This document shows, in pieces, positions 51,605 through 52,453 of a stretch of 64,000 nucleotides of DNA. Source of the DNA: a virus (Duplodnaviria; Caudoviricetes); the IMG/VR virus record IMGVR_UViG_3300025133_000020, one strand, 5' to 3'. The notes under the pieces are model-generated. The model had not been told where the DNA came from. It saw only the letters and a list, made by a program, of their open reading frames with translations, and ran no database searches. The first letter of the stretch is position 1; each line of letters starts with the position of its first letter. Both the position numbers and the translations under genes were made by a program.

Positions 51605-51979
51605 ATGGAAGAAGTAGGATAGATTAAAAACAACAAATTAATAACCATAACACGGCAAGACATGCCCTATGGTTACCAAGCTGTACAGTCAGCACATTCG
51701 ATAGCTTATTTCGCAATAGAGCATCGAGAAGAATTCGAAAGATGGCACGAAACCTCACAATACATGGTTTCCTTGGGTGCTAAAGATGAAGACCATTTAC
51801 GGGAATTAATTACCAAAGCTGATGAGAAGGGCATTAAGATGTCTATATTCATTGAGCCTGATATTGGTAATGAGATAACGTCCATTACGTTGGAACCGTG
51901 TGAAGCGGCACGTAAGATGACCAGCTCGTTACCAAAATTAATGAAGAAAATCGATGCGGAATTTGCAAGTGTCACATAA
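51605..51979 (+). CDS. peptidyl-tRNA hydrolase 2-like protein with in-frame TAG at codon 6
   Basis: MEEVG*IKNNKLITITRQDMPYGYQAVQSAH...EPDIGNEITSI; TAG at 51620-51622. Confidence 0.75.
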
Positions 51980-52001
51980 TTATTGTATATTTGCAAAGTA
52001 T

Positions 52002-52058
52002 GTGCGGGTGGTCGAGTTGTTTAGACGGTGAGCCGCAAGCTCATTTACGGGGGTTCGA
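52002..52058 (+). pseudogene. 3'-truncated tRNA-Cys(GCA)
   Basis: acceptor 5' strand, D arm, GTGAG-CCGCAAG-CTCAT, GGGGG-TTCGA, then no 3' T-stem or acceptor strand. Confidence 0.65.
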
Positions 52059-52117
52059 CACAATAGAAGAAGCGGTGGAAGACTGCTTGGAATACGTAGT
52101 AATAGAACAAATGTGAT

Positions 52118-52285
52118 ATGACAGAAAAAGAGATGTTTGAAAAGTCTTTCAGTAGACCAAAGAATTACTTTAAGCTAACACCAAGGCGTCAATGGGAAAT
52201 TGATGATATGTTAGGTATCTTGGATTGGTTAGGTGGGAACCTTACCGAAGAAGAAAAGAAACGATTTGACGATTATTACGACTAA
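52118..52285 (+). CDS. small hypothetical protein (55 aa)
   Basis: MTEKEMFEKSFSRPKNYFKL...GILDWLG. Confidence 0.6.
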   Translation: MTEKEMFEKSFSRPKNYFKLTPRRQWEIDDMLGILDWLGGNLTEEEKKRFDDYYD

Positions 52286-52389
52286 TGAAGAAGAGTACAA
52301 TACTTAAAATAATCGTAGCACTATTGACTATGGTCGGTGGGTTCGTATTAGGTGTACTAACTAGAATGTTAATTACAATGCTTACGTAG
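52285..52389 (+). CDS. 34-aa membrane peptide
   Basis: MKKSTILKIIVALLTMVGGFVLGVLTRMLITMLT; its TAG stop lies inside the tRNA-CUA 5' end. Confidence 0.45.
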   Translation: MKKSTILKIIVALLTMVGGFVLGVLTRMLITMLT

Positions 52390-52453
52390 CTCAAATGGTT
52401 AGAGCGACAGACTCTAAATCTGTAGGTTGTGGGTTCGAACCCCACCGTTCGCA
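52380..52453 (+). tRNA. tRNA with CUA anticodon (amber suppressor type)
   Basis: GCTC/GAGC D stem, ACAGA-CTCTAAA-TCTGT, GTGGG-TTCGAAC-CCCAC; acceptor has U3.C70 and U4.U69 mismatches; A73. Confidence 0.8.

Follow-up and report, generated by a model that had tools for sequence, protein, structure and literature searches.

The window analysed here (64,000 nucleotides of the IMG/VR virus record IMGVR_UViG_3300025133_000020; Duplodnaviria, Caudoviricetes) contains a small gene related to peptidyl-tRNA hydrolase 2 (Pth2), whose reading frame is interrupted by one early TAG, hereafter the gate, and which is followed on the same strand by a transfer RNA (tRNA) gene with a CUA anticodon (tRNA-CUA; Table 1). 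A previous, sequence-only reading of this DNA had proposed that the full-length protein is made only upon amber readthrough. The letters it quoted for positions 51605-51664 (ATG ... TAG ATT ... ATG) proved exact when read again, and its two structural claims were borne out: the first Pth2 strand lies 5' of the ATG given by the open reading frame (ORF) caller and in frame with ATG 51605 across a single TAG (the Pfam PTH2 match begins at residue 15), and a CUA-anticodon tRNA, called by both ARAGORN and Rfam, lies about 760 nt 3' of the TAG. Translation of the window gives MEEVG*IKNNKLITITRQDM... (the asterisk stands for TAG), with the frame unchanged on both sides of the gate up to the closing TAA. 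The pairing of a conserved TAG with a CUA tRNA looks like a built-in translational switch and not like a broken gene.

Table 1. Coordinates of the features at the gated Pth2-like locus of the window
Feature	Position	Strand	Basis and remarks
Phage transfer-messenger RNA (tmRNA)	50201..50562	+	Rfam RF00023, 85.5 bits
Putative promoter (-7) motif TAnnTTTG, Bacteroidota type: TACATTTG	51565..51572	+	~33 nt 5' of the leader ATG; read directly
Leader, ATG and four sense codons (MEEVG)	51605..51619	+	In frame with the Pth2-fold domain; read from sequence
In-frame TAG (gate), A at +4	51620..51622	+	Codon 6; read from sequence
Pth2-fold domain, 118 codons from ATT 51623; stop TAA 51977-79	51623..51979	+	Pfam, AlphaFold2, Foldseek, dN/dS
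Codons of beta strand 1 (LITITR)	51638-51655	+	5' of the ORF caller's ATG 51662
tRNA, anticodon CUA, class I, A73	52380-52454	+	ARAGORN; Rfam tRNA 66.4 bits

The window has a GC content of 38%, and its plus strand is densely packed with standard-code ORFs, several of them longer than 900 aa; a large marine phage of the Bacteroidota type that uses the standard genetic code is the best explanation of its source. The listed sequencing runs that hold the stretch are marine metagenomes, none of them on record as RNA, and a Megablast search of window positions 50000-54000 against GenBank phages returned no match. The TAG was found without variant (positions 51602-51635) in contigs from three independent marine metagenome runs and is therefore not a sequencing error; metagenome contigs spanning both the gene and the tRNA likewise had the same tRNA-CUA sequence. 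The motif TAnnTTTG stands at an equal distance 5' of the leader ATG in five relatives (L001, L002, L003, L004, and L019), and, going by what is generally known of Bacteroidota promoters, TACATTTG may act as the promoter of the gene. The RNA of positions 51578-51700 was predicted to fold into a hairpin with the AUG in its loop and the UAG in its stem (z = -2.4).

The protein obtained by reading through the gate was matched by the Pfam family PTH2 (PF01981) over residues 15-100 with 34.2 bits against a cut-off of 23 (E = 3e-8), the match opening with KLITITRQD, and a profile of 87 relatives matched six Pth2 families of the PDB with E-values from 1.6e-11 to 6.5e-5. The AlphaFold2 model based on the same 87 relatives reached a predicted local distance difference test (pLDDT) of 94 and a predicted template modelling (TM) score of 0.86, with beta strand 1 (residues 12-17) in the core sheet and the first 10 residues modelled at low confidence (pLDDT 68), and the best 15 matches of a Foldseek search against the PDB were all Pth2 or Bit1 structures (TM scores 0.55-0.73). 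The ratio of nonsynonymous to synonymous substitution rates (dN/dS) against relatives was 0.04-0.14 over 100 codons, with dS ranging from 0.6 to saturated, which at the level of codon comparison shows purifying selection on the gene; of the nine beta-1 codons, seven are not the same in L001 as in the window, and every change is synonymous. The family corresponds to PHROG 1866, which is without an annotated function. In Sulfolobus solfataricus Pth2, catalysis depends on the Lys of a Gly-Lys motif and the Asp of an RDAG motif. The phage proteins conserve Q28 and H31 in an AQxxHA-like motif, and a nearly invariant Glu84 is aligned with the Asp of RDAG.

Initiation at ATG 51662, which the sequence-only reading had named as an outcome that would speak against it, is not viable, as this position is ATA or ATC in four close relatives (L002, L003, L004, and L019) and a start there would delete beta strand 1. 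In those four, the first ATG after that position comes only some 55 residues into the domain, hence the 70-aa proteins called in databases. Because homology and beta strand 1 extend upstream of ATG 51662, translation must either cross the TAG or restart at it. The start-site annotation of the Pth2-like family is corrected accordingly, many database entries having been shortened to 70 or 104 aa. One such case is BPT24_235 of the cultured Tenacibaculum phage pT24 (LC168164.1, L024), whose start was annotated about 90 nt into the Pth2-like domain and whose frame really opens with ATG AAA TAG ATA, 36 nt 5' of the start of detectable homology; the pT24 protein has an additional C-terminal region (~200 aa). 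Another deviating form was seen in the IMG/VR contigs L114 and L115 (about positions 3001-4000), where a TAG-type gene (MKH*ITKESKLYVV...) carries an in-frame insertion of about 300 aa after the AVQ motif, rich in CPxC repeats, that could be an intein or a homing-endonuclease insertion.

The sequence-only reading had suggested examining whether the TAG is kept in orthologs while the flanking codons vary, and the result was strongly positive. The TAG was invariant in all 11 close loci, each of which reads ATG, three to seven sense codons, TAG and ATT (GTT in L002), with six different leaders among them. Across the family, 66 of the 77 distinct members were of the TAG type, in which a start codon and 0-7 sense codons lead to a TAG shortly before beta strand 1. 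A scan of IMG/VR yielded 80 loci with 58 distinct N-termini, and in 49 of these the layout was compact: an ATG, 0-6 sense codons and then TAG, strand 1 being preceded by no canonical start. Of the 50 TAG-type IMG/VR loci, 49 had an in-frame ATG 0-7 codons 5' of the TAG, as did every TAG-type locus examined elsewhere (in one mycobacteriophage it is GTG). Leaders varied in both length and sequence (MEEVG, MKKEQDCM, MKDM, MK, MS, and others), ATG plus one codon being the commonest form. Distant examples include the contigs L020 (MRDT*INNKKL, 47% identity) and L021 (MKK*INNQKL, 45% identity), LR756501 (L022; 735 kb; MS*IYKL), LR745206 (MNN*INETKL), LR756500 (MK*INNHKL), LR756502 (MKN*IEETKL), LR756504 (MT*ITKQ), LR756511 (MTH*VETPY), phage pT24 (MK*ITKNS), and the mycobacteriophages Catera (ATG TAG GTG) and Phabba (GTG TAG GTG); five TAG-type huge phages of 462-735 kb are among them. 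Identity between pairs of TAG-type proteins had a median of 48% and a minimum of 20%. On a tree of the 77 distinct proteins the parsimonious root state was TAG, with five changes, and the non-TAG forms were nested inside TAG-type clades (e.g., a high-GC clade opening with MATIK), so that, as far as can be read from this tree, the gated arrangement is ancient. The LR756501.1 locus (2486-2870) has two in-frame TAGs, at codon 3 and at codon 37, the latter in the middle of the conserved domain. The Q that protein P0002 shows at the gate was considered as evidence for glutamine insertion and set aside, since the contig has TAG there and the gene caller rendered it as Q; P0015 and P0019 are alike in this, and none of them is independent evidence.

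The gating stop was always TAG and never TAA or TGA, although TAA makes up 81% of the real stops in these genomes. The base that follows it (+4) was A in 38 and G in 11 of the 49 distinct loci and in no case C or T, and this purine share of 49/49 compares with 56% at real TAG stops (Fisher p = 9e-11, computed over lineages that are not independent); T follows 38% of the real TAG terminators in the same genomes. A purine 3' of the codon reportedly favours amber suppression in Escherichia coli. In LR756501 and LR756511 the distance from the Shine-Dalgarno sequence (9 and 7 nt, respectively) suits the leader ATG and not the codon after the TAG. An ochre-gated counterpart was looked for beside the tRNA-UUA of LR745208 and was not found, the gene there having an ordinary GTG start.

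A CUA tRNA lay on the same strand within 3 kb of the gene in 40 of the 49 distinct TAG-type IMG/VR loci, the strand being the same in every instance, and in none of the seven high-GC non-TAG loci; counted as 41/50 against 2/8, the association gave a Fisher p of 0.0025 over lineages that are again not independent. The tRNA of the window has a 7-nt anticodon loop (CUCUAAA) on a 5-bp stem and shares 75-83% identity with the CUA tRNAs of other Pth2-linked loci, compared with at most 71% with the other tRNAs examined alongside. Among 61 distinct CUA tRNAs the discriminator base was A in 37, U in 13 and G in 11, and the first base pairs were mixed; given these mixed identity features, different amino acids are probably inserted at the gate in different phages, which would be tolerable because the gate lies in a disordered tail. 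In pT24, ARAGORN called four tRNAs, one of them with a CUA anticodon (191520-191594), 2.6 kb 5' of the gene; for the stretch shown, the deposited record has no CUA tRNA among its annotations and gives two tRNAs there as 'tRNA-Undet'. LR756501 carries two adjacent CUA tRNAs 2.1 kb 3' of its Pth2-like gene. Two other modes of decoding were considered and rejected. A UAG used as an initiation codon by an initiator-like tRNA-CUA does not fit an anticodon stem (ACAGA/UCUGU) without the three initiator G-C pairs or the conserved ATG that precedes the TAG, and quadruplet decoding (UAGA) does not fit, for the window, a normal 7-nt loop and a triplet frame that is kept. In the mycobacteriophages Catera (L049, 2105-2178) and Phabba (L050, 1965-2035), a tRNA just 3' of the gene has a 9-nt anticodon loop (CUUCUAAMC), for which the records give Arg(TCT) and ARAGORN gives CUA.

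On this basis we consider it reasonably probable that the full-length Pth2-like protein needs readthrough of the UAG by the phage tRNA-CUA, a mechanism that accounts for the TAG specificity, the purine context, the tRNA linkage, the post-TAG codons that are not starts and the codon-37 TAG of LR756501. Ribosomes would start at ATG 51605 and meet the UAG at codon 6, where decoding as sense, most likely by the tRNA-CUA encoded 760 nt 3', would yield the full-length, correctly folded protein, whereas without decoding, release factor 1 (RF1) would free a pentapeptide at little waste. The tRNA-CUA is presumably expressed, charged and able to decode the gate, and the AlphaFold2 model, which puts the gate in a disordered N-terminal tail, suggests that the identity of the inserted amino acid would be indifferent. 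The arrangement would thus work as a two-part switch in which the early UAG is the lock and the suppressor tRNA the key, so that enzyme output is tied to suppressor activity. Some protein may also arise at a basal level from weak reinitiation at the adjoining AUU, and a hybrid in which reinitiation or natural readthrough gives the basal amount and the suppressor tRNA the boost is plausible. The more general proposal, that large standard-code phages carry a portable switch with a UAG at codon 2-9 of the Pth2-like gene as its lock and a dedicated suppressor tRNA as its key, so that the enzyme is made only during UAG override and in proportion to it, is advanced with more reserve, and we rate it below an even chance.

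An ordinary nonsense mutation, a pseudogene or an assembly error would be the simplest account of one TAG in an otherwise ordinary small gene, and its probability is practically nil, as it is refuted by the conservation of the TAG across relatives, the agreement of three metagenome runs and the dN/dS of 0.04-0.14. Genome recoding, or its onset, in which the gene would be one of many with TAG as sense (as in code 15), is very improbable. It would fit a phage-encoded CUA tRNA, the application of TAG=Q by gene callers to the contigs of some relatives and the rarity of TAG as a stop in the window, which the sequence-only reading had claimed and our count upheld (3 of the 57 ORFs of at least 100 aa). 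The test was made on the window, G001 (152 kb, syntenic with the window), the complete genomes of pT24, G002 and G003, the 97% complete G004 and 135 kb of LR756501. ORF coverage under code 11 and with TAG as sense was 0.928 and 0.918 in the window, 0.897 and 0.907 in G001, 0.931 and 0.921 in pT24, and about 0.92-0.93 under both codes in G002-G004; standard-code coverage was thus 0.90-0.93, and reading TAG as sense brought no appreciable rise in the window or in G001, pT24, LR756501, G002, G003, or G004. In each of G001, pT24, G002, G003, and G004, 20-35 genes with a length of 100 aa or more terminate in TAG, the large structural genes are intact, and a genome-wide search for the early-TAG layout found no other gene with it in the complete pT24 or in the window. 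As judged from these genomes, the gate is gene-specific and not a sign of genome recoding. The suggestion of the sequence-only reading that the TAG might mark an early stage of reassignment found no support: the arrangement is ancient (identity between TAG-type proteins falls to 20%), and the genomes that carry it are otherwise standard in code and treat TAG as a real stop. A gate that is fixed at codon 2-9 and ancient is also unlike the scattered pattern described by Borges et al. (bioRxiv 10.1101/2021.08.26.457843).

Several observations weigh against readthrough by the tRNA-CUA, and most of them bear on what we regard as its main rival, reinitiation at the adjacent ATT. Here the leader would be a minimal upstream ORF (uORF), ribosomes starting at ATG 51605, stopping at the UAG and reinitiating at AUU 51623 (AUA or GUN in relatives) to give a protein that opens MKNNKLITITR, with no need of the tRNA-CUA. 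In 43 of the 49 loci, against 6.9 expected, the TAG is followed by an Ile or Val codon (ATT, ATA, ATC, GTN); the mycobacteriophages have a GTG there, 7 nt 3' of a Shine-Dalgarno sequence, and the non-TAG gene of LR745208 starts with a GTG at the equivalent place, all of which would suit a codon that acts like a start. The weightiest point is that no CUA tRNA was detected in the complete genomes G002 (360 kb) and G003 (362 kb), both TAG-type and taken as complete from their terminal repeats, by ARAGORN with and without introns or by an anticodon-arm scan, so the gate can persist without a detectable phage suppressor; nor did the available flanks of L014 and L018, the nearest relatives of the window, hold one. 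The coupling gives no reason for an invariable TAG where TAA dominates, and it leaves the same-strand linkage in 40 of the 49 loci unexplained. ATG never follows the TAG, although it is one mutation from ATT, itself a weak non-canonical start in the window, and the Shine-Dalgarno spacing in LR756501 and LR756511 fits the leader ATG. Several lineages have codons after the TAG that are unable to initiate (ACN, AGC, GGC, GTT), and since ACN, AGC or GGC stands there in 6 of the 49 loci and LR756501 has its second, mid-domain TAG, reinitiation cannot be universal; we regard it as unlikely to be the main route, though far from negligible. Readthrough by the tRNA-CUA must also be reconciled with three window genes for which TAG is the real stop (29860-30738, 31969-32595, and 60172-61194), so that efficient suppression comes at a cost; further in-frame stops 6-14 codons past those TAGs (one gene has TAG TAG and one has three TAGs within 12 codons) would limit it. 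The acceptor stem of the window tRNA-CUA has only 5 of 7 pairs (mismatches U3-C70 and U4-U69), because of which its functionality cannot be assumed; its G001 ortholog also has two mismatches, and the stems of L003 and L004 are full. The position of the catalytic Lys aligns with Tyr24, which is not conserved in the family and makes enzymatic activity uncertain, so that the protein may, but need not, hydrolyse peptidyl- or acyl-tRNA. A sensor of RF1 or of termination stress, on the analogy of prfB, is improbable, more so than reinitiation: limiting RF1 would increase readthrough of the early UAG and induce the hydrolase, with the CUA tRNA setting only the baseline. UAG is the only stop read solely by RF1, which would explain the TAG specificity, and the persistence of the gate in the two complete genomes without a CUA tRNA, the translation-rescue neighbours (tmRNA, ClpP) and a GGQ-motif ORF near the gene in six loci would fit as well. 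There is, however, no evidence that these phages or their hosts lower RF1, and the strong tRNA linkage suggests a dedicated decoder. The likeness to prfB, the gene of release factor 2 (RF2), lies in an early in-frame stop in a translation-factor-like gene whose expression hinges on how that stop is handled; prfB uses a +1 frameshift and its product acts on its own UGA, whereas here the frame is kept, a Pth2-fold product is not known to act on a stop codon and closes no loop, and a tRNA is the likely dedicated decoder, so that the analogy fails on its defining points.

Set beside other known systems, the gate would resemble programmed viral readthrough, as in the A1 protein of phage Q-beta at UGA and the gag-pol of murine leukaemia virus at UAG, in that a conserved leaky stop would set the amount of an in-frame downstream product. 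Those viruses use host tRNAs, and their readthrough product is a minor isoform with a C-terminal extension; in the gated gene the entire functional domain lies 3' of the stop, and the decoding tRNA usually comes from the virus itself. The protein resembles archaeal and eukaryotic Pth2 (PF01981; PDB 1q7s (Bit1), 2zv3, 1rlk, 1wn2, 3erj, and 1xty) in fold, Pfam membership and the AQxxHA-like motif, and differs from it as a phage subfamily with Tyr at the Gly-Lys lysine and Glu (E84) for the acidic Asp. The 'peptidyl tRNA hydrolase' of cluster C mycobacteriophages (Bxz1/Catera) belongs to the same family (~32% identity over 100 aa) and has many tRNAs nearby, with a TAG directly 5' of the annotated GTG start, after ATG or GTG; unlike in the window, the leader consists of nothing but the start codon, and after the TAG comes a canonical GTG whose Shine-Dalgarno sequence is well placed. 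The cluster C gene lies inside a tRNA and tmRNA cluster, whose tmRNA is known from the literature. A further parallel lies in the recoded phages of Borges et al. (bioRxiv 10.1101/2021.08.26.457843), crAss-like and Lak phages with suppressor tRNAs of their own that read TAG as Gln (code 15); the word 'hydrolase' is absent from the text of that paper. Like those phages, the present ones carry their own UAG-decoding tRNA in a standard-code host, and an in-frame TAG would silence a gene until the tRNA acts, as post-transcriptional control. Unlike them, they otherwise use the standard code with TAG as a real stop, only one small gene is gated, at codon 2-9 in a disordered tail, and the gene-tRNA pair is conserved across very distant phages. 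A recent survey of jumbo phages tied suppressor tRNAs only to alternative genetic codes, and our full-text literature searches found no paper on an amber-interrupted Pth2-like gene paired with a suppressor tRNA.

Phage suppressor tRNAs are currently explained by genome-wide stop-codon recoding, and many standard-code phages carry one for which no target is known; the tRNA-hydrolase-like gene, with a conserved amber gate that is specific to it, offers such tRNAs a concrete client. If the portable switch proposed above is real, it would be the first natural one-tRNA, one-gene suppression circuit, and the 'orphan' suppressor tRNAs of standard-code phages would have their first defined client. The gate also points to a small, natural and portable means of controlling expression and links suppression to the translation-rescue genes of phages (tmRNA, ClpP), and since pT24 and the cluster C mycobacteriophages are cultured systems that carry the gate, the idea is directly testable. 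As to purpose, our guess is that the supply of hydrolase might be scaled to the by-products of stop-codon suppression, alongside tmRNA and ClpP; were the portable switch true, the enzyme could remove the peptidyl- or acyl-tRNAs that suppression leaves behind, or act back on the suppressor tRNA itself.

The local gene order in the window is DnaJ, a phage metallopeptidase and ClpP (47909-50150; Pfam), tmRNA, two ORFs of unknown function, the Pth2-like gene, small ORFs and the tRNA-CUA, and the order tmRNA, Pth2-like gene, tRNAs is common to L001 and L004. The DnaJ, metallopeptidase, ClpP and tmRNA genes look like a proteostasis and ribosome-rescue module, and tmRNA and ClpP here, together with the GGQ-motif ORF of six other loci, suggest that the Pth2-like protein may help to deal with the products of abnormal termination. 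That ORF (TGKGGQHKNTTDS) resembles a class I release factor or ArfB and lies near the Pth2-like gene in 6 of the 77 loci (e.g., L097, 1563-1994). A search for conserved protein partners within 3 kb on either side found none that is universal, the commonest, an 87-aa downstream ORF, occurring in 16 of the 77 loci and being absent from the window. ARAGORN misses the tmRNA of the window and calls the copies in L001 and L004; the tag peptides end in ALSA or LALAA.

Further tRNA-like elements lie 3' of the gene. At 52001-52065 (plus strand) the window has a tRNA-like remnant, called by neither ARAGORN nor Rfam and with an unpaired T arm, at the place where L001, L003, L004, L014, and L019 have a tRNA-Cys(GCA), and it has probably decayed from a tRNA-Cys. 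At 52890-52992 (plus strand), a tRNA-like element of 103 nt that contains an insertion scored 40.8 bits with the Rfam tRNA model and was missed by ARAGORN; more tRNA-like stretches follow at 53000-53400, where ARAGORN with relaxed settings proposes a tRNA-Val with a 119-nt intron (about 53166-53366), and the elements at 52890-53400 may be intron-bearing or otherwise unusual phage tRNAs. Genes resembling GIY-YIG/NUMOD homing endonucleases are interspersed among the tRNA genes, both in the window (53597-54196 and 63484-63999) and in G001 (60581, 82452, and 94377).

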